A DNA stretch of 64,000 bases from Thermoplasmatales archaeon (GCA_030672305.1 DAOVGR010000050.1:32302-96301); one strand, 5' to 3'. Positions 1,760 to 46,846 are shown, counted from the stretch's first letter. The notes: generated by a model from the letters alone, not told the origin. Numbers and translations are program-made.

Positions 1760-2763
1760 TTATTTTTTAACATCTTTTTAAAGTCCGTTAAATCTGTTTT
1801 TCTTGCTTCTGTTAAAGATACTAAAAAGCCTACAAAACCTGTAACTACATCTGTAATAATAAATCCTACAAGAGTAAACACCAGAACCACTTCTTCGCCT
1901 ACTCCAAAAAGTGTTGAAAAAATTATTATAGATGTTAATTCACGAAAACCTAAACCAGCAAAGGTTACAGGAATATAGCCTGCAATATTTGCAACTGGAT
2001 AAAGTAATAAAAAGCTTAGATATGGGATATTTGCTCCTAATGCATAAACAATGATGTATTCTTGAGAAAAAATAATTACCCAAGAAATTAAACCAAGGAA
2101 TAACGGAATAATTAAGCGATTTATTCTAGGAAAATCTTTATAGAATGTATCCGCAAATTTTGAGGATGGGTCTTTAAGTTTCTTTGGAATCAAGTATTTA
2201 ACAAAAAGGTGGAAGAATTTTTTCCCACGTTCTTTCTTAATAAAATAAATTATAATAAATGCTTGGAATGAAATTAAAATTGCAATTATGATAAGGAGTA
2301 TTCTTGTTATTTCAAGTTCTGAAAATTGATCAAGAATAATTAATAATCCCCCAACTATCATAGAATATATTGCAACTTGACGTACTGTTACTTCAATAAA
2401 TGTGTTAACAAACAGTTTACCATATGGTTCCCCGGTTTTTTCTTTCATATATGGAACTCTCATTAACTGTCCAATAAATCCAGGGGTCCAACTGGCATAG
2501 AAATATCCTATTAGAAAACACTTTAATGATTGGAAGTAGCTAATTTTGATTTTTTGCTCTTTTTGTATTAATCGCCATCCATAATTTCTAATCAGTACTC
2601 GTGGAATTGTTAGAGATAATGCTAGTACTATGAAAATTGGATTAATTATTAAGAATGCATTTATAATTTTTCCAACATCTAAATTAAGAATAATTATTAA
2701 TAGTACTATAATTCCTAATAATGGTAGAAATTTTTTTACCTGTTCGAAAATTTCTTTTTTCAA
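1756..2763 (-). CDS. Polytopic membrane protein, UPF0104 / lysyl-phosphatidylglycerol-synthase transmembrane (flippase-like) family
   Basis: 335 aa with 7-8 predicted TM helices. Conserved loop WRLIQKEQKIKISYFQSLKCFLIGYFYASWTPGFIG is typical of the MprF N-terminal flippase-like domain. Paralogous to 2924-3889 and to the N-terminal half of 6817-8397. Confidence 0.6.
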   Translation of the reverse strand: MKKEIFEQVKKFLPLLGIIVLLIIILNLDVGKIINAFLIINPIFIVLALSLTIPRVLIRNYGWRLIQKEQKIKISYFQSLKCFLIGYFYASWTPGFIGQLMRVPYMKEKTGEPYGKLFVNTFIEVTVRQVAIYSMIVGGLLIILDQFSELEITRILLIIIAILISFQAFIIIYFIKKERGKKFFHLFVKYLIPKKLKDPSSKFADTFYKDFPRINRLIIPLFLGLISWVIIFSQEYIIVYALGANIPYLSFLLLYPVANIAGYIPVTFAGLGFRELTSIIIFSTLFGVGEEVVLVFTLVGFIITDVVTGFVGFLVSLTEARKTDLTDFKKMLKNN

Positions 2764-2923
2764 TGAACATGGGGTATCTTATTATCTTTATTTATTGTTG
2801 TGGAAAAATGAAAATTCTTTATTTGCATCTTATAATTAAATCAAGCTTACCAGATACTTGGTTTTTTTTATTAACATCACAATGGAATATCTACTTTTTT
2901 AGGGGAAATTATTAATTGAATAA

Positions 2924-3889
2924 TTGTTACACCTTTCATATTTGATGGAAAAAAATAATCTTAAAAAAGTGGTAAAATTACTCCCTATTATTGGTGTTGC
3001 AATATTCATTTATATTATAAATGACATTGGAGTTGAAAAAATTGCAGACGCTTTTTTTTCAATCCCTATCCAATTTTTTATTCTTGCACTTCTAATTGTT
3101 TTTCTAAGAATATTTGTTTATACTTACAAGTGGAGTTATATCTGTAATAAAATGAAAATAAACATTAAATATTTTGATTTAGTAAAAATCTATTTGATTG
3201 GAGTATTTTATGGGAACCTTACACCTGGTGCACTTGGTTTACATTTAAGAATTTTTTACATGAGAAAAAAATCTAAAGCATCAATTGGAAAATGTCTCGC
3301 AAGCTCACTTATAGATATCGAATTAGCATTAATAACAGGTATTTTTATAGGATTAATTGGCACCATTTATCTCATTAATTTCTATCCTGGACTGTTACCG
3401 TTACTAATACTACTTCTTCTTATCCATGGTACTCTGCTAATTATTTTTATGAAAAAAAGTGGTGGAAGTAAATTTTTTAAGATTTTCATAAGACCTTTAA
3501 TACCTAATAAATATAGAGAAGGAATAGATCAATCAGTTGAATTATTTTATGAGGATATGCCCAGATTTAGAGAAATGCTAATTCCTATTTTATTTGATTT
3601 TATTACATGGGTAATAATTGGAACCCAAGTGTATATCATTGCACAAGCATTCTCTGTAGATATTCCTTATTTAATATTTTTGATGTTGCATACATTATCA
3701 GTTGTTGCATATGGTTTATTACCAATTTCAATAGGAGGATTAGGAGTTAGAGAAGGTATATTTGTGTTTTTATTATTACCATTTGGGGTGGCGGCAGAAG
3801 TTGCTTTTGTTATTTCATTATGTGGCTATATTGTAAAATTGATAATTCCTGCGTTATTTGGGATGTTTTTTTCATTTAAAGAGAAATAA
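2924..3889 (+). CDS. Polytopic membrane protein, UPF0104 / flippase-like family (paralog)
   Basis: 321 aa. Block YKWSYICNKMKINIKYFDLVKIYLIGVFYGNLTPGALG aligns with the same block in 1756-2763 and 6817-8397. Multiple TM helices. Confidence 0.6.
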   Translation: MLHLSYLMEKNNLKKVVKLLPIIGVAIFIYIINDIGVEKIADAFFSIPIQFFILALLIVFLRIFVYTYKWSYICNKMKINIKYFDLVKIYLIGVFYGNLTPGALGLHLRIFYMRKKSKASIGKCLASSLIDIELALITGIFIGLIGTIYLINFYPGLLPLLILLLLIHGTLLIIFMKKSGGSKFFKIFIRPLIPNKYREGIDQSVELFYEDMPRFREMLIPILFDFITWVIIGTQVYIIAQAFSVDIPYLIFLMLHTLSVVAYGLLPISIGGLGVREGIFVFLLLPFGVAAEVAFVISLCGYIVKLIIPALFGMFFSFKEK

Positions 3890-3923
3890 AGAGTTATTTT
3901 AAGAGAAAAATCTAGGTGATAAT

Positions 3924-4643
3924 GTGAAAGATGCTGATTTTATTAAATCTAAAAATGAAACAGATTCACATTATGAGTTAGTAAAAAAGTATTTTAGGAA
4001 AAGTGCTGAAGATAAGAAAAGATTTTACAGTTTTAAAAGTAAAGAGGAAATAGAAAAAGAGATAAAAAAACGAAGTATGTGGAAGATATACACATCAATA
4101 TTAGATGAAATTTTACAAAAAGATGCGGAAATCACAAGTGTTATTGATATTGCATGTGGAATGGGGAATTTTACCATGGAGCTTGCTAAACGTAATAATT
4201 ATAAAAGAATAGTAGGAGTTGATTTTCTAAAAGAAACCTTTAATATTGCTCGTAAAACAGAAAATATTTTTAGAAATATTTCCTTTCTGGAGGGAAATTT
4301 ATTAAATCTACCATTTACTGATAGGAGTTTTGATTTCACAATATGCTTAAACACTTTACATCACATATATAAGAATGATTTTTACAAAGCAGTCAATGAG
4401 CTAACAAGAATAACTAAACACTATCTTATGTTAGAAATAAGGAATAAAAATTACATTTTGATGCCTTGGATAAATAAAACTGTTTTACAAAAAGTATATA
4501 GAGATTTACCAATTTATTGTAGCTCAGTTTCAGATTTAAATGATTTAATAGAAAAAAATGGATTTAAACTTAAAATTATTAGACGAAATAGTTCATTAAC
4601 TTGGACAAGTTGGCGTCTTGTACTTGTTTATGAAAGAAATTAA
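3924..4643 (+). CDS. Class I SAM-dependent methyltransferase
   Basis: 239 aa. Motif I VIDIACGMGNFTMELA, motif II RIVGVDF, post-I acidic residue and motif IV FDFTICLNTLHH. Confidence 0.7.
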   Translation: MKDADFIKSKNETDSHYELVKKYFRKSAEDKKRFYSFKSKEEIEKEIKKRSMWKIYTSILDEILQKDAEITSVIDIACGMGNFTMELAKRNNYKRIVGVDFLKETFNIARKTENIFRNISFLEGNLLNLPFTDRSFDFTICLNTLHHIYKNDFYKAVNELTRITKHYLMLEIRNKNYILMPWINKTVLQKVYRDLPIYCSSVSDLNDLIEKNGFKLKIIRRNSSLTWTSWRLVLVYERN

Positions 4644-39018: not shown

Positions 39019-40557
39019 TTATGTCAAGGGTACATCCTTTCTTAAATCATCTCTCATTTTTTTTCCAGTTTGTTTCTCCCATTCTTTAATTGTAATTGAA
39101 TGTTTATTTCGGATTTTATCACCTATTCCAAGACCATTGTAAGAACAAAATGGAACAATACCTTCAAGAGTTGTATAATGAATTACACATCGCTCTAAAC
39201 GATCAACATTAAGGTTAAAAGCATCCTGGAACCACATTGATCCAACAAAGAGACTCTTGTAATGAAATCCTCGAAGTGAATCATAGCTTCCACCTATTGC
39301 TGCATCTTTCAAGAGTTTTTTTAGGTTAAAACCACTAGGTGCCTTATTATAATCCACAAATTTGTCAACTTTTGTTAAAAAAGCAGAAGCAACTCTAAGC
39401 TTTTTTAATGGCCCTCTAATTTTACTTTCTTTATCTACAAACTCAAGTAAACCTTCAACATCAATGAATCGTGTAATAGGCATAGGTTTTCCATTATCCA
39501 AAAATATATATGTTGCACCACCACAACCAGGATGAGCAGTAAACTCCACTTGGGTTTCTCCTTTCAATAGTTCGATTAGTTTTGAAATTGGATACACAAA
39601 TGGAACAGGATAAAAATCATCTTTAGATATTTGCCCATTAAATTCCTTTTCTATTGCATCCATCATTTTAACATAGTCAACTCGCTGCATTTCTCGCTTT
39701 TCATCTTTTATTTTTGTTATTCTACCGCAAAATGATACAGGTTGAAAATTTACACCTCTGATTATATCTATGTTATCGAGTGCAAATTTTACTATTTTTC
39801 CTGTCTCATGAAGATTTTTTCCTCCGATCAAAACAGGAACGAGTACTATTTTTAAGTTTACCTTTCTTAAATTATCAATTGCTTTTTTATTAAGATCTAT
39901 CCATGGATTGGTTTTTTTAGTCACACCATCAAAGCTCATATAGACGGTGTTTACCTTTGCTTCTTTTAGCTGCCGGCAATAATCAACACTATCAGCAAGT
40001 TTCAAACTATTAGTATTTACTTGAACATGAGAAAAACCGACTTCCTTAGCCATTTTTACAATATCTAAAAGATCCTTACGAATGGTTGGCTCCCCACCGG
40101 TTATCTGAATTGCTTTAGATCCCATTGGTCGTTCATTTCTTGCTTGAATCAGTAATTCTCTGATTTGTTCTAATGTTGGTTCATATACTCTACCAGATGC
40201 CCCAGCATTCATAAAACAATAGCTACATCTTAGATCACAGCGGTTTGTTACCAAAAGATTTGTAAGAACGCTTTGAGATTTATGCTCATCATATAATGCA
40301 GGTTCATCAAATATTTTAGTTTTAACATCTGGAGCTAAACTTCCTGTAACGATATATTTCATCCACTTTTTATAGAGATTTACATCACTAAAATAGATAT
40401 CTTTGAAAGATCCATGCTTCTTGCATTCTTTCGTTATATATACCTTTCCATCATCCTCAACAATAGCTGCATCTATTTTTTCGATTTTTCCCTCTTGATA
40501 ACAGGCTGGACAAACAGATGTAATTTTTTCTAATTCTCTCATATCCCTTCCATCCAT
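39019..40557 (-). CDS. Radical SAM enzyme with N-terminal zinc-ribbon; possibly tetraether lipid synthase (Tes / GDGT-MAS)-like
   Basis: 512 aa. CPACYQEG...CKKHG ribbon, radical SAM CxxxCxxC (NRCDLRCSYCF) and extra C-terminal Cys pair (CVIHYTTLEGIVPFCSYNG). Size and layout resemble the roughly 500-aa archaeal Tes/GDGT-MAS family. I cannot confirm the specific assignment without alignment. Confidence 0.7.
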   Translation of the reverse strand: MDGRDMRELEKITSVCPACYQEGKIEKIDAAIVEDDGKVYITKECKKHGSFKDIYFSDVNLYKKWMKYIVTGSLAPDVKTKIFDEPALYDEHKSQSVLTNLLVTNRCDLRCSYCFMNAGASGRVYEPTLEQIRELLIQARNERPMGSKAIQITGGEPTIRKDLLDIVKMAKEVGFSHVQVNTNSLKLADSVDYCRQLKEAKVNTVYMSFDGVTKKTNPWIDLNKKAIDNLRKVNLKIVLVPVLIGGKNLHETGKIVKFALDNIDIIRGVNFQPVSFCGRITKIKDEKREMQRVDYVKMMDAIEKEFNGQISKDDFYPVPFVYPISKLIELLKGETQVEFTAHPGCGGATYIFLDNGKPMPITRFIDVEGLLEFVDKESKIRGPLKKLRVASAFLTKVDKFVDYNKAPSGFNLKKLLKDAAIGGSYDSLRGFHYKSLFVGSMWFQDAFNLNVDRLERCVIHYTTLEGIVPFCSYNGLGIGDKIRNKHSITIKEWEKQTGKKMRDDLRKDVPLT

Positions 40558-40651: not shown

Positions 40652-40885
40652 GTGTGTTTAGCTATACCTGGTAAAATTGTTGAAATAAATAAAGACAAAG
40701 AACATGCAGTAGTAGATTATGGGGATGGAACTAAACGTAAAGCTAATGTTACTCTTGTTAATGTAAAAATTGGTGATTATGTATTGGTTCATGCAGGTTT
40801 TGCAATAGAAGTTTTAAATGAAAAAGAAGCAAAAGAAACACTTGATCTTTTTAGAGAAATGCTTTCTGCAGAGGAGGACGTCTAG
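40652..40885 (+). CDS. hypC: [NiFe]-hydrogenase maturation chaperone HypC
   Basis: 77 aa. Begins with the invariant MCLAIP. Confidence 0.9.
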   Translation: MCLAIPGKIVEINKDKEHAVVDYGDGTKRKANVTLVNVKIGDYVLVHAGFAIEVLNEKEAKETLDLFREMLSAEEDV

Positions 40886-41967
40886 TGTTTTCTTTACGTG
40901 ATAAGAAACTTGCAGATGAAATTGTTTCGAAAATTAAGAAATTGGAGGTTAACTTAAAATTTATGCATGTATGTGGTACACATCAAGATACTCTTGTAAA
41001 AAATGGTTTAGATGTTCTACTAAAAGATTGTGGAATTGAGATTGGACAAGGTCCAGGTTGTCCGGTCTGTGTTACAACTCCTAAAGAAATCGAAGAAATG
41101 CTACTTCTTGCTAGAAAAGGTAAGACTGTTACAACTTTTGGAGATATGATAAATGTACCTGGTGAAACCCAATCTTTACGTAGCATTCGATCTGAAGGTT
41201 GTGATGTTAGAACTGTGTATGGTATTGAGGATGCCTTAGAAATTGCTAAAAATAACAAGGAAAAAGAAGTTGTTTTTATGGCTGTTGGTTTTGAAACAAC
41301 AGCACCTACTACTGCAACAGTAATACTTAATGAAAATCCACCAGATAATTTTTCAATTCTTTCTTGCCATCGTACAATACCTGAGGCATTAAAAGCAATC
41401 ATTGAAATGGGTGAAATAAAGATAGATGGACTTATTGAACCAGGTCATGTTTCCACAATTATTGGATCAAAACCTTATGAGTTCCTCTCAAAAGATTATA
41501 ATGTTCCTCAAGTAATAGCTGGATTTGAGCCAATTGATGTTTTAATGGGTGCATGGATGCTTGTTCAGCAAATAGAAAAGGATAAGGCTTTTGTTCAGAA
41601 TGAATACAAAAGAGTTGTCCATGAAGAAGGAAATGTTAAAGCTCAGCAGGCAATAAAAAAAGTCTTTGATTCAATAGATTTACAATGGCGAGGCTTTCCA
41701 ATTATTCCAAAATCAGGTCTTGTTTTAAATGACAAATTTGAGAGATATGATGCCCGTAAGAAATTTGAAGATGATCTAGAAGAATTAAAAGATAAGGAGT
41801 TTTTTGAGCATAAAGGTTGTCGATGTGGAGAATTGCTACGAGGATTAGCATCACCAAAAGACTGTCCTTTATTTGGTCAGGCATGTACACCGGAAACCCC
41901 AGTTGGCCCTTGTATGGTAAGTATTGAAGGCAGTTGTAATATTGAATACCGATATTCAGAAAAATAA
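40885..41967 (+). CDS. hypD: [NiFe]-hydrogenase maturation factor HypD
   Basis: 360 aa. CGTHQD, GPGCPVCV and C-terminal CxxC...CPVC-type Fe-S motifs. Confidence 0.9.
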   Translation: MFSLRDKKLADEIVSKIKKLEVNLKFMHVCGTHQDTLVKNGLDVLLKDCGIEIGQGPGCPVCVTTPKEIEEMLLLARKGKTVTTFGDMINVPGETQSLRSIRSEGCDVRTVYGIEDALEIAKNNKEKEVVFMAVGFETTAPTTATVILNENPPDNFSILSCHRTIPEALKAIIEMGEIKIDGLIEPGHVSTIIGSKPYEFLSKDYNVPQVIAGFEPIDVLMGAWMLVQQIEKDKAFVQNEYKRVVHEEGNVKAQQAIKKVFDSIDLQWRGFPIIPKSGLVLNDKFERYDARKKFEDDLEELKDKEFFEHKGCRCGELLRGLASPKDCPLFGQACTPETPVGPCMVSIEGSCNIEYRYSEK

Positions 41968-42666
41968 TTGGTAATCAGTATGAATTATAACGATGTTATA
42001 AATCAGTTAAAATCAATGAGTGAGCCTAAAAATGTTGAGGGAATGGCTCGTTATGGAATTAACCCAAAAAATAACCTTGGCATTTCTATTTACAAATTAA
42101 GACCTCTTGCAAAAAAGATAGGTAAGAATCACAATCTTTCTTTAAAACTATGGAATTCTGGTATTCATGACGCAAGATTACTAGCAGTGTTTGTTGAGAA
42201 CCCTTCACAAGTTACAGAGAAACAAATGGATTCATGGGCAAAAGATTTTGATTCTTGGGATGTATGTGACCAAGCATGTACTAGTCTTTTTGATTTAACA
42301 CCACATGCATGGAAAAAGGTATATGAATGGGCAAATCGAGATGAGGAATTTGTAAAGCGCGCAGCTTTTTCAATTATTGCAGGTCTTGCAGTTCATGATA
42401 AAAAAGCAGCTGATATAAAATTTGAAGAGTTATTTATAATTATTAAAAGAGAAGCAACAGACGGTCGTAACTATGTTAAAAAAGCTGTAAATTGGGCTTT
42501 GAGAAATATTGGCAAAAGAAATCTTGGATTAAATAAAAAAGCAATAAACACAGCAAAAGAAATCAAAAAAATAGATTCAAAATCAGCAAAATGGATTGCA
42601 AATGATGTTATTCGGGAGCTTACCAGTAGTAAAATTCAAGAAAGAATAAAAAATAAAATTAACTAA
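41968..42666 (+). CDS. DNA alkylation repair protein (AlkC/AlkD-like HEAT-repeat glycosylase family)
   Basis: 232 aa all-helical. Blocks EGMARYGINPKNNLGISIYKLRPLAKKIGKNHNLSLKLWNSGIHDARLLA and FDSWDVCDQ typical of the DNA_alkylation family. Its TAA stop codon lies inside the target duplication of the downstream IS. Confidence 0.7.
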   Translation: MVISMNYNDVINQLKSMSEPKNVEGMARYGINPKNNLGISIYKLRPLAKKIGKNHNLSLKLWNSGIHDARLLAVFVENPSQVTEKQMDSWAKDFDSWDVCDQACTSLFDLTPHAWKKVYEWANRDEEFVKRAAFSIIAGLAVHDKKAADIKFEELFIIIKREATDGRNYVKKAVNWALRNIGKRNLGLNKKAINTAKEIKKIDSKSAKWIANDVIRELTSSKIQERIKNKIN

Positions 42667-42685
42667 CTTGACTTTGTCAGATTAG
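42667..42685. repeat. IS left terminal inverted repeat
   Basis: cttgactttgtcagattag. Pairs with 44330-44348. Confidence 0.7.
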
Positions 42686-42874
42686 CAAAAATCAGTATGC
42701 ATATGCTAAATATTGCAGCCTCTGTTGCAATAATAAAATCAACATAAATCAGCTATTTTCTATGATTCTCTTCAAAATGCATCTGCTGGTGTATTCAGCA
42801 GATAAGAAACAATCTTTCTATTACTAACCTAAGAAGGTAAGAACTACCTCCGACAATATCTTGTTACTCACTTG

Positions 42875-44248
42875 TTATTTATTCCGCCGGTGATGCGAAT
42901 GGCGAGCAGACAACCGACGTTTATGTTTCTCAAGGATGAGTTGTATCAACTCTTCACTGGTTACATGCCTTTTTGGCATGATGACTTCAAAAATCTCTTT
43001 GACGTCCTGCACAGTTAAAAACTCAACTTTCTTCCCCAAATCTATGGATAGCACCATAAGATATAGCATTGCAAGAATAGTCATGGTCATATGATGATGC
43101 CAACCAGTCCAATTACGTACCTGATAATCTGCCAGTCCTGCGATGCCTTTTCCATCTTCAAATGTTCTTTCAATCCAATACCTGCTCCCAGACATTTGAC
43201 CTAAACGATTAATACATGTATCAACAGGAGCATTTGATAACTGATATTTAATTTCTTTACTCTTTGGATCCTTTCGGATGATCAACCAGCATTCATCTCC
43301 GGGGAGGCTATCATTTTCACTTGGAAATACACGCGGGCAGGCCATATCTGCCCATAACTCCCTTCGCTCGGTATCTCGGATAAACACATGATGCCACTCC
43401 TCGCCATCCAGTTGATCTTTAAGATCTCTCACCTTAATTGAATCTGCTCCTTCAATCACTTTCTCACGAGTAGGATTACGACCACGAACACCTTTTTTAC
43501 GTGACGGCACTCCTGTTATCGGACGCTCCAACCATACACCAAGGTTACAAGGAATATCAGCAATATACACCAAACCCTGTGCATCTATCTTGTTTCTCAA
43601 CCATGAGTCACGACCATAGAAACAATCTATCCCCACCCAGCCGAAAGGCACCTTGTTCTTCTTTTGTGCATGAAGAATCATCTCCCATGCAAGCTCTGTT
43701 TTTTTCTTAAAACGAACATACCATGGCACCCCGCATTTCCTCCGACGTACCTTATCCGGTATCCATTCCTTTGGAAGAAATAATCGTTCATCAATCAACG
43801 TCCTATAAGAGTCCTTGGTATATCCAAGGAAGATACCTACCTGACAATTCGCTATCTTTCCTAGTCGACCGCAATACTGTGGAGCCGCACCCACTGAATC
43901 AGTTCCTTGTTTAGGAAAACAACATTCATCAATATGTATTGAACCTTTATTTTTATCTCCAATAGCATCAATGACGTCACGTTGAATATGATTAATTACA
44001 GGTCGATGATTCCATGGTGAATTAGATACAAAATGTTGCAGGGATTGATTGTTACAATCAGGAACATCTTTTGCATATGAACACATGTTACCTCTACCTT
44101 TTCCAAGCAGCTTTCCCTGAATGTACTGGAATGATTGCTTTGCCATATTTCGGGTTTTTGTTAAAAAATACAAGGCATATCCATCATGGAAACATTTAAG
44201 CTTATCATGTGATCCATCTAAATCCTTTACGGATAATGAAAACTTCAT
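42875..44248 (-). CDS. IS701-family (IS4 superfamily) DDE transposase
   Basis: 457 aa. C-terminal signature SGSRYWIERTFEDGKGIAGLADYQVRNWTGWHHHMTMTILAMLYL. G+C visibly higher than flanking DNA. Confidence 0.85.
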   Translation of the reverse strand: MKFSLSVKDLDGSHDKLKCFHDGYALYFLTKTRNMAKQSFQYIQGKLLGKGRGNMCSYAKDVPDCNNQSLQHFVSNSPWNHRPVINHIQRDVIDAIGDKNKGSIHIDECCFPKQGTDSVGAAPQYCGRLGKIANCQVGIFLGYTKDSYRTLIDERLFLPKEWIPDKVRRRKCGVPWYVRFKKKTELAWEMILHAQKKNKVPFGWVGIDCFYGRDSWLRNKIDAQGLVYIADIPCNLGVWLERPITGVPSRKKGVRGRNPTREKVIEGADSIKVRDLKDQLDGEEWHHVFIRDTERRELWADMACPRVFPSENDSLPGDECWLIIRKDPKSKEIKYQLSNAPVDTCINRLGQMSGSRYWIERTFEDGKGIAGLADYQVRNWTGWHHHMTMTILAMLYLMVLSIDLGKKVEFLTVQDVKEIFEVIMPKRHVTSEELIQLILEKHKRRLSARHSHHRRNK

Positions 44249-44329
44249 TTATGCATCCCATCCACTGATGGGAAGGTAGATGGATGTTTAAAAAGGATAT
44301 TGTGTATTTTACCTTAATTGAAAAAAAAT

Positions 44330-44348
44330 CTAAAGTGACAAAGTCAAG
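44330..44348. repeat. IS right terminal inverted repeat
   Basis: ctaaagtgacaaagtcaag. Its reverse complement matches the left inverted repeat at 17 of 19 positions. Confidence 0.7.
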
Positions 44349-44358
44349 CTAATGTAAT

Positions 44359-44607
44359 TTATTTTGGCTTGTATTTATCCATTTTTTTATTTGCAATTTT
44401 GCTTGTTATTATATAATAAGTATATACTAAAACAAGCTCAATTGCAAAAATAATTAAAAACCAAACAAAAGTAGAACCAATCCTTAATAGATTATTTGTA
44501 TTTGTTATATCTAAACCAAAAGTTATAACAATAGAACCTAAGAATGGTATAAACATACCAACAATTACTATTATTAGTATCTGTATCAAATCCCTGTTTT
44601 TACCCAT
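44359..44607 (-). CDS. Small membrane protein (2 TM), unknown function
   Basis: 82 aa and hydrophobic. Lies between the IS and hypF. Coding status uncertain. Confidence 0.35.
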   Translation of the reverse strand: MGKNRDLIQILIIVIVGMFIPFLGSIVITFGLDITNTNNLLRIGSTFVWFLIIFAIELVLVYTYYIITSKIANKKMDKYKPK

Positions 44608-44653: not shown

Positions 44654-46846
44654 TTAAGAATTCAGTTTATTCCCAATAATAGCATTTTGACCAATAGAAA
44701 TACCACCATCACCATTAGGAATCTGATTATGAACGGTTAACTTCAATCCTGCTTTTTCAACTTGTTTTTCTATCATCTCTACAATAGGAATATTGTAAGA
44801 TACCCCGCCTGTTAATCCAACGTTCTTAATACCTAAATTATCTGTATAATCAATAGCTATATTTGTAAGATCATCAAGAATAGTTTTAACAAACGAAAAA
44901 ACAAAATCTGCTTTTTCTTTTTCAGTTAGAGGTTTATTTATCATCTCATCAAGTTGTCTAAATAGATCAATAGTACCAACAACACCATTTTTTACTTCAC
45001 TGTTAAATGAATATTTAGATTCCCCAACAGAAAGATACTTCTCAAGCTTCATAGCAGGTTCACCATCATAAGTTCTCTTTGTACATATATTTAGATAACA
45101 GGAAAGAGTATCAAGTACACGTCCTAGACTGCATGATTGTGGTGATTTATCCATTAATTTACTAAGGATAGATGCTTCATCTCCTGTAAAGAATTTTTCA
45201 ATATCGAATTTTTTAAAAACGGCAAAAACAAGTCTTCGTGGATCACGGGTTGCCTGGTCACCACCAAGAAGAGGAATATATCCAAGATGACCAACACGAT
45301 CAAATTCTTCAAAATTTGAAATAAGAATTTCCCCACCCCAATAAGTTCCGTCGCTGCCATATCCAAGACCATCTAATGTTAAAACAACGCTTTCCTTAAT
45401 ATTTCTATCAACTAAAAGTGAAACAGCATGAGCCCAATGATGTTGAACTTCAAATAAAGGAACTGAAAATTCCTCAGAAAACTTCTTAGCTATCTTTCTT
45501 GAATCGTAACCTGGATGAAGATCCTGAACAATAGCATCAATCTTAGGCTTCTTCATTATAAGTTTTATAAGATAATTCAGGCTATCTTCTAAAAATTCAA
45601 GGGTTGAATAGTATTTTGAATTGCCAATATACTGAGTTGCATAAACACTTTTATTATGAGAAATTGCACCTGTAATGTTTTCACCAGCACCAACACTTAA
45701 AATTCGATTATTATATGAAACAGCAATAGGTTCTGGAACATAACCTCGTGATCTCCTAATAAAAAAGGTATTATCTTTCCACAACCTAACAACAGAATCA
45801 TCGACTCTATTTGGTATACTTCTATTATGTAAAAGGTAAATATCTGCATCTATAGAAAATGCTTCCTCATCTGTAGTAATCATTGCCTCTCCAGGAATAT
45901 TTGAAGAGGTCATTACAAGAGCATCTGATTTTAAATATGAAAAGAGAAGATGGTGCAAACCAGTATAGGGTAAAAATAATCCAATTGTGTTTAATCCAGG
46001 AGATACTTCTTCACAATTGATCTTATTTAAAAGAACAATAGGTCTGCTCTTAGAAAGTAATTTTTTTTTCTCATCTTCATTTATATTAGCGTATTTTTTT
46101 GCAGTTTCAAGGTCTCTAACCATCAAAGCAAAAGCTTTTTGTGGACGGCCATACCACCCTCTAAACCGACTAATTTGACTAAGATTACAGCACAGATGCA
46201 TTCCACCCCATGATTTTATAACGCCAATTTTACCAGCATCTATCTGATTTGCAAAACGCTTTATTGCATGTTTTTCTCCTAGATCTTTTTTCTTTTTGTC
46301 ATATAAATTATATTTCGGACCACATTTTGGGCAAGAAATCGTCTGAGCATGATAACGGCGATTTAAGGGATTTTTATATTCTTGTTGACAGTCCCTGCAT
46401 AACTTAAATACGTCCATGCTAGTTCTTTCTCTATCATATGGAACATCTTTTACTAGACTATAGCGGGCACCACAAACAGTACAATTAGTAAAAGGAAAAT
46501 GATAACGCCTATCTTTTTCATCCAAAAGCTCTTTCAAACAATCATTACAGATTCCAACATCAATAGGAATTAATGATTGTCTTTCGCCTTTTTCACTATG
46601 AAGAATTTTAAAATCGTCAAATGTTCTATTATCATTTTTTTCAATAATTTCTGTTATCTTTGCAATTGATGGTAGATGATCTTTTACTTGTTTGATAAAT
46701 TCATCTTTTTTTTTATCTATAACTACTTCTACCTCTGAGCCCTTGTTTAAAACATAACCATTTAGATTTAATTTTTTTGCAATGCGATAAATAGTTGGTC
46801 TAAAACCTACTCCTTGTACTACACCTTTAAAGATAAGTTTCATCAA
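44654..46846 (-). CDS. hypF: [NiFe]-hydrogenase maturation carbamoyltransferase HypF
   Basis: 730 aa. N-terminal acylphosphatase domain (VQGVGFRPTIYRIAKKL), two CxxC-x18-CxxC zinc fingers, then YrdC-like and Kae1-like domains. Confidence 0.9.
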   Translation of the reverse strand: MMKLIFKGVVQGVGFRPTIYRIAKKLNLNGYVLNKGSEVEVVIDKKKDEFIKQVKDHLPSIAKITEIIEKNDNRTFDDFKILHSEKGERQSLIPIDVGICNDCLKELLDEKDRRYHFPFTNCTVCGARYSLVKDVPYDRERTSMDVFKLCRDCQQEYKNPLNRRYHAQTISCPKCGPKYNLYDKKKKDLGEKHAIKRFANQIDAGKIGVIKSWGGMHLCCNLSQISRFRGWYGRPQKAFALMVRDLETAKKYANINEDEKKKLLSKSRPIVLLNKINCEEVSPGLNTIGLFLPYTGLHHLLFSYLKSDALVMTSSNIPGEAMITTDEEAFSIDADIYLLHNRSIPNRVDDSVVRLWKDNTFFIRRSRGYVPEPIAVSYNNRILSVGAGENITGAISHNKSVYATQYIGNSKYYSTLEFLEDSLNYLIKLIMKKPKIDAIVQDLHPGYDSRKIAKKFSEEFSVPLFEVQHHWAHAVSLLVDRNIKESVVLTLDGLGYGSDGTYWGGEILISNFEEFDRVGHLGYIPLLGGDQATRDPRRLVFAVFKKFDIEKFFTGDEASILSKLMDKSPQSCSLGRVLDTLSCYLNICTKRTYDGEPAMKLEKYLSVGESKYSFNSEVKNGVVGTIDLFRQLDEMINKPLTEKEKADFVFSFVKTILDDLTNIAIDYTDNLGIKNVGLTGGVSYNIPIVEMIEKQVEKAGLKLTVHNQIPNGDGGISIGQNAIIGNKLNS

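Follow-up and report, generated by a model that had tools for sequence, protein, structure and literature searches.

An intact, unnamed IS701-family insertion sequence at the 3' end of an alkD-like gene in a Thermoplasmatales archaeon

The IS701 family was set apart from the IS4 family by the absence of the tyrosine in the YREK signature and by a conserved target duplication of exactly 4 bp (PMC2266710; De Palmenaer, Siguier, Mahillon 2008). For the 27 elements of the family covered in 2008, a length of 1400-1550 bp was typical, and the consensus ---YACT-Y--YR was given for the ends, with the remark that it does not represent the whole family (PMC2266710). Cut-and-paste transposition is described for IS4 relatives (PMC2266710), and copy-and-paste transposition has been reported for ISDge5, an IS701-family element with 5-bp duplications (PMC8533066).

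A 64,000-nt stretch of DNA from a Thermoplasmatales archaeon, referred to here as the window, was analysed for an element of this type. With a probability of about 0.93, we read it as a complete and apparently autonomous IS701-family insertion sequence (IS), from a clade that is common among sediment archaea with A+T-rich genomes (Thermoplasmatota and relatives), which inserted at a YTAR tetranucleotide between two convergent transcription units. Direct support for this comes from its ends, the target duplication, the protein family, the intact catalytic triad, the purifying selection on the clade, the YTAR flanks of relatives elsewhere and the empty orthologous sites.

Reading of the sequence and a script placed the element at positions 42667-44348 (1682 bp), in such a way that the boundaries and the length given by the first-pass annotation were confirmed to the base. 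The 4-bp direct repeat CTAA reported there is present at both flanks, with the left copy of the target-site duplication at 42663-42666 and the right copy at 44349-44352. The element starts with the inverted repeat (IR) distal to the transposase start, CTTGACTTTGTCAGATTAG (42667-42685, + strand), a 19-mer that also ends the related copies at loci L003 and L010. It is followed, all on the - strand, by 189 bp of non-coding DNA 3' of the transposase stop (42686-42874), the transposase gene of 457 aa plus stop (42875-44248), a leader of 81 bp between the IR and the transposase ATG (44249-44329), and the transposase-proximal IR (44330-44348), which reads CTTGACTTTGTCACTTTAG as its reverse complement. 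The repeats are identical at 17 of their 19 positions, as had been claimed and as the sequence read confirms. By convention, with the transposase read from left to right, the proximal repeat is IRL and the distal one IRR, so the repeat previously called left was correctly located but is the right IR.

When a degenerate IR pattern was searched in the 64-kb window with up to 3 mismatches, only two sites were detected, corresponding to both ends of the element (0.37 were expected by chance), and the same pair was the top inverted repeat (I1) in a repeat search. The longer IRs proposed by that search (36 nt, 81%) were rejected, since relatives share only the inner 19 bp; the extension reflects the A+T-rich, partly palindromic target region. 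The transposase-proximal IR of the relatives is CACATTAG. Close relatives across the clade have in common that their two ends differ (C/G) at position 14, and only the window copy has a T at position 15 of its transposase-proximal IR.

The 81-bp leader presumably holds the element's own promoter, and an A+T-rich TTTTTAAA is found around 35-40 bp upstream of the transposase ATG. A sigma-70 promoter and terminator scan, whose model is unsuited to an archaeon, gave no more hits than in shuffled sequences, and neither Rfam families nor tRNAs were detected in the window. At the other side of the gene, the 189-bp 3' region contains no ORF longer than 21 aa and no significant structure (fold z-score of -1.8). 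It is also poorly conserved among relatives, many of which align only from element position 199. On these grounds, together with the lack of Rfam matches, a conserved RNA or a small gene in this region was rejected.

The single ORF of the element matches the NCBIfam model NF033540 "IS701 family transposase" with 308.8 bits (cutoff 150), with residues 37-399 aligned to profile positions 19-361 of 363. Only IS701 models of NCBIfam match this protein, and Pfam PF13546 (DDE_5) is matched with an E-value of 9e-50 (170 bits). In an alignment of 23 sequences, with homologues down to around 25% identity, conserved acidic residues occupy the positions of D107, D208 and E361 in 18 of the 22 other sequences, and the remaining four are from actinomycetes. 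The C1 region reads S354-G-S-R357-Y-W-I-E361-RTFEDG-K368, that is, R-x3-E-x6-K with S replacing the Y of YREK; a tyrosine at this position is absent in all aligned relatives, and an invariant GWHHHMTM block follows the motif. There is one ORF and no programmed frameshift, and relatives of 454-461 aa are matched over 100% of the length of the ORF. The dN/dS values between the window transposase and five relatives were 0.11-0.14, so the lineage encodes a protein under purifying selection; these values measure the IS lineage and not the window copy. The HMM score, the triad, the R-x3-E-x6-K without tyrosine and the 4-bp duplication support the earlier description of an IS701-family DDE transposase with its C-terminal signature.

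Assignment to a neighbouring family (IS4, ISH3, IS1634 or IS5) was also considered. YTAR-type 4-bp targets are known for IS5, and the lengths of the element (1682 bp) and of its relatives (1653-1695 bp) are above the IS701 range published in 2008, which is descriptive rather than defining. Against this, NCBIfam matches only IS701 models, the main one at twice its cutoff, and the missing YREK tyrosine and the duplication of exactly 4 bp are the definition of IS701. The end sequence CTTGACTTTGTCA fits ---YACT-Y--YR at 6 of the 7 specified positions, with G for Y at position 4, in a consensus that is not family-wide. Any family other than IS701 is thus hardly credible.

Relatives were found in large numbers. 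A scan of GTDB species genomes gave 243 stretches encoding relatives, the closest of them at 67-89% aa identity, and in a collection of 15 billion proteins 2686 homologues were detected at E <= 1e-30, with a best match of 88% aa among cluster representatives and of 90.6% among cluster members. At the DNA level, the closest relatives are 85-87.5% identical. They are labelled "SRSO17 transposase" at JGI and "IS701 family transposase" at NCBI. In ISfinder naming, a new IS is one with less than around 95% aa identity to any named IS and, given the maximum of 90.6%, the element would get a name of its own under this rule.

Both ends could be located in around 30 related copies at 67-90% aa identity, with CTTGACTTTGTCA at each end and at most 2 mismatches, in such a way that the search for other copies with the same inverted repeats, proposed in the first-pass annotation, yielded related copies sharing the ends at many sites. 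Scan relatives at 52-89% aa identity have CTTGACTTTGTCA at both ends and measure 1653-1695 bp, with one of 1468 bp. The 4 bases outside the ends of the around 30 copies are almost always TTAA, TTAG or CTAA (YTAR). Identical 4-bp flanks, all TTAA or TTAG, were found at ten loci (L003, L011, L012, L015, L017, L090, L095, L096, L097 and L100), and locus L041 has GTAA on both sides. The hosts of relatives with real flanks are MAGs assigned to Thermoplasmatota, Thermoplasmatales, "Methanobacteriota" and Euryarchaeota, and related copies are also present in metagenomes.

Several of the related sequences depart from this pattern. Three contigs under bacterial names contain little beyond the IS: L002 (1549 bp, a Kosmotogaceae MAG), L013 (1676 bp, Hyphomonadaceae) and L005 (2830 bp, Ignavibacteriaceae). 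Because every copy with real flanks in this set is archaeal, the probable explanation is that a multi-copy repeat was misbinned, and not cross-domain transfer. At L089-L093 and L098-L104, identical IS copies have unequal flanks (for example TTAA/TTAG), a given flank being found with more than one partner; these are probably short-read, repeat-induced assembly chimeras, or possibly the outcome of recombination between copies. An internally deleted relative at L019 (3001-4112), in which only element positions 198-897 and 1371-1682 align and whose flanks are TTAG and TTAT, is a decayed copy. The homologues from Streptomyces, Kitasatospora, Streptacidiphilus and Spongiactinospora (L054-L081), at 22-26% aa identity, keep the PKRG..SVGV, NCQ and GWHHHMTM blocks and, in the aligned sequences, lack two of the three triad residues (the first D and the E); they may be derivatives of transposases that are inactive or have been domesticated. 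Beside the related IS of L097, a NifU-like gene (2749-4572) shows intein and LAGLIDADG matches and is fused to a PTPS domain.

The order of ORFs around the element confirmed its location between hypCD and hypF. Upstream lie hypC (40652-40885), hypD (40885-41967) and an alkD-like DNA alkylation repair gene on the + strand (41980-42666; 228 aa from ATG; PF08713, E-value 6e-35). On the other side, and convergent with alkD, are a conserved 82-aa ORF (44359-44607, - strand), whose stop is 6 bp from the target site, and hypF (44654-46846, - strand). The names of these neighbours follow the Pfam labels of orthologues. The alkD protein has a 100% match on a 111-kb NCBI contig and many orthologues at 85-90% identity, such as that of Thermoplasmatales archaeon SG8-52-3. 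The first start codon of its ORF is a TTG at 41968, and the ATG chosen by gene callers follows four codons later; the 228-aa form from this ATG is the only one on record, and an exact-protein look-up of the TTG-start form gave no match. Just upstream of hypC, a radical SAM protein of 512 aa is encoded on the - strand (39019-40557); its orthologues carry PF23545 (Zn_ribbon_HMPTM) and Radical_SAM, and it adjoins the hyp genes in L086 and L087. Within the 82-aa ORF there is a 31-nt inverted repeat (I2, 44385-44453; 77% complementary, with a 7-nt spacer), which may simply be A+T-rich sequence.

The insertion went into the 6 bp that separate alkD from the convergent 82-aa ORF, and neither gene is damaged. 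The alkD-like gene stops at the TAA within the left CTAA (42664-42666), and the length of its orthologues (228-229 aa) is kept, with a C-terminus unaltered by the insertion, so the statement that the left copy supplies this stop without truncation of the gene holds. It had also been proposed that the duplication regenerates the stop codon. The stop is indeed intact, but any target duplication would do the same, as the CTAA existed before: duplication leaves the original CTAA beside alkD, and alkD is therefore unchanged. A duplication that includes the stop codon of a real flanking gene was found in 3 of around 16 distinct sites (the window, a 114-codon ORF in L003 and a 186-aa gene in L096). 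In the window as reconstructed without the insertion, a YTAR context is found at the end of 20 of 55 genes, and stop codons make up 9.5% of the gene-sparing YTAR sites, giving a binomial P of around 0.19 for 3 of around 16. Specific targeting of stop codons was therefore rejected; the preference for certain targets, combined with selection against insertions that disrupt genes where 90% of the genome is coding, suffices to explain the landing on a stop codon.

In order to follow the comparison with empty sites suggested in the first-pass annotation, orthologous loci were inspected, and four of them (L083; L084, in the complete 1.82-Mb sequence CP070712.1; L086; L087) showed the arrangement hypC-hypD-alkD / 82-aa ORF-hypF without the element and collinear with the window. 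In these four loci the convergent stops of alkD and the 82-aa gene are 1-5 bp apart, the latter gene also has 82 aa, and a ferredoxin-like gene and the large subunit of a [NiFe] hydrogenase lie downstream of hypF. When positions 42667-44352 (1686 bp) were removed from the window, the alignment was gap-free at the junction against the four loci, and without any gap at all against L083. From this alignment, the insertion postdates the split from these four lineages and added exactly the element plus one CTAA. The reconstructed empty-site junction reads ...AAAATTAACTAATGTAATTTATTTT..., and a 28-nt string across it, representing the strain-level empty allele, had 0 matches in metagenome contigs.

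The same collinearity bears on a possibility that the first-pass annotation had named as a refutation, a larger composite transposon or genomic island of which the element would be one end or an inner segment; nothing was found in favour of it. The four orthologous loci are collinear on both sides and differ from the window only by the 1682 bp plus the 4 bp of one CTAA, which excludes a larger composite; besides, no second copy or IR is present within the 64 kb, and in around 30 relatives the same pair of ends is separated by 1.65-1.70 kb. We see practically no room for such a composite. Regarding the possibility that the insertion is an assembly artefact, with a repeat contig misjoined into a scaffold, the source appears to be a metagenome-assembled genome, and many related copies lie on short contigs with unequal, chimera-like flanks. 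Nevertheless, a wrong join would not give identical CTAA flanks nor exact collinearity after removal, and both junctions were assembled independently, with sequences identical to the window, in the Logan contigs L001 (alkD-IS junction) and L082 (junction between the IS and the 82-aa ORF) from run SRR26080966, which makes an artefact very improbable.

These two contigs break inside the element, L001 463 nt in (around 43129) and L082 147 nt in (around 44202), which suggests branching of the assembly graph caused by related copies in the sample and gives a faint hint of further copies. With respect to additional copies, relatives with the same ends were found but not the exact element, the closest relative being at 90.6% aa; no second copy was found in the 64-kb window, the exact transposase protein gave no match in an exact-protein look-up and is on record (as P0241) on one 111-kb NCBI contig only, and a 24-nt string specific to the end of the window copy had no exact match in the JGI metagenome collection. 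A fixed, immobile IS701-family copy, a molecular fossil with an open ORF, would agree with this single copy and with its private IR variant, whose substitution in the transposase-proximal IR reduces the match to 17/19, several close relatives having 18/19. We regard a fossil as unlikely, though deserving of some weight, since the ORF is full length with an intact DDE triad, the 4-bp duplication has no mismatch, purifying selection acts on the clade (at the level of the lineage and not of the window copy), and the breaks of the Logan contigs inside the element from both sides are those expected with related copies in the sample.

Mobility of the element is supported indirectly, by the empty orthologous sites and by the many insertion sites of relatives. 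A mechanism for the insertion can be proposed by analogy with the family, in which the chemistry may be cut-and-paste or copy-and-paste and present-day activity of the window copy is putative. The DDE transposase would presumably bind the 19-bp terminal inverted repeats, and the element would be joined to a YTAR tetranucleotide opened by cuts staggered by 4 bp; repair of the stagger would then have duplicated the CTAA. The target would have been the CTAA that contains the alkD stop, in the 6-bp gap between the transcription units of alkD and of the 82-aa gene and hypF. As a target in the gap between convergent units leaves neither gene altered, the insertion was probably neutral, and as it lies downstream of both units no gene should be separated from its promoter. 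Since hypF, the 82-aa gene and the transposase are all read in one direction, transcription may run on from the hypF unit into the transposase and further, as antisense RNA, into alkD.

The base composition of the element was also compared with that of its surroundings. The G+C content is 0.393 for the element, 0.408 for the transposase ORF and 0.310 for the rest of the window, and the excess is found at silent sites, with a GC3 of 0.341 in the transposase against 0.193 +/- 0.023 in 42 host ORFs (z = 6.3). The excess noticed in the first-pass annotation is thus real, but the recent acquisition from a donor of higher G+C proposed there is not supported. All of the around 30 related copies are richer in G+C than their flanks (0.37-0.46 against 0.22-0.43), and those with a host label and real flanking DNA are all in comparably A+T-rich genomes. 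Since every relative shows the same offset in A+T-rich hosts, it is a property of the IS lineage, and points neither to a date nor to a donor. A joint proposal, in which the silent-site excess would be maintained in the clade, either through host-rare codons that throttle transposase translation or as a signature of constant horizontal flux between hosts, and in which co-directional transcription of hypF and the 82-aa gene could drive the transposase and send antisense RNA into alkD, is improbable.

The element is therefore best taken as an ordinary and intact IS701-family IS, an unnamed member of a known family, of little importance beyond annotation, and the hydrogenase-maturation cluster is intact despite its insertion. 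What it documents is an unnamed clade of the IS701 family that is abundant among uncultured sediment archaea, has ends of the form CTTGACTTTGTCA... and inserts at YTAR. The defined ends and target are useful for the annotation of MAGs and for explaining contig breaks, and the clade helps to flag probable binning errors, as in the three IS-only or nearly IS-only contigs under bacterial MAGs.

Compared with known systems, the element resembles the IS701 family, the group with 4-bp duplications that has IS701 and ISRso17 as types, in its single-ORF DDE transposase above the HMM cutoff, its R-x3-E-x6-K without tyrosine, and its duplication of exactly 4 bp with conserved sequence. It differs in its length (1682 bp against 1400-1550 bp), in the G at end position 4 and in its hosts, which wherever real flanking DNA is available are uncultured sediment archaea. 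ISDge5 of Deinococcus geothermalis, in the same family, has been seen to transpose experimentally, showing that IS701-family members are mobile in vivo (PMC8533066); its duplications are variable 5-bp sequences (CACCA, TCTTC) and its ends, CTCAGGAGTTGCACCT, are unrelated (PMC8533066), whereas the clade described here has 4-bp YTAR duplications. The IS4 family proper (IS10, IS50, IS231), from which IS701 was split, shares a related DDE fold and a similar IS organisation, but has the full YREK and duplications of 8-13 bp (PMC2266710), neither of which is present in this element.
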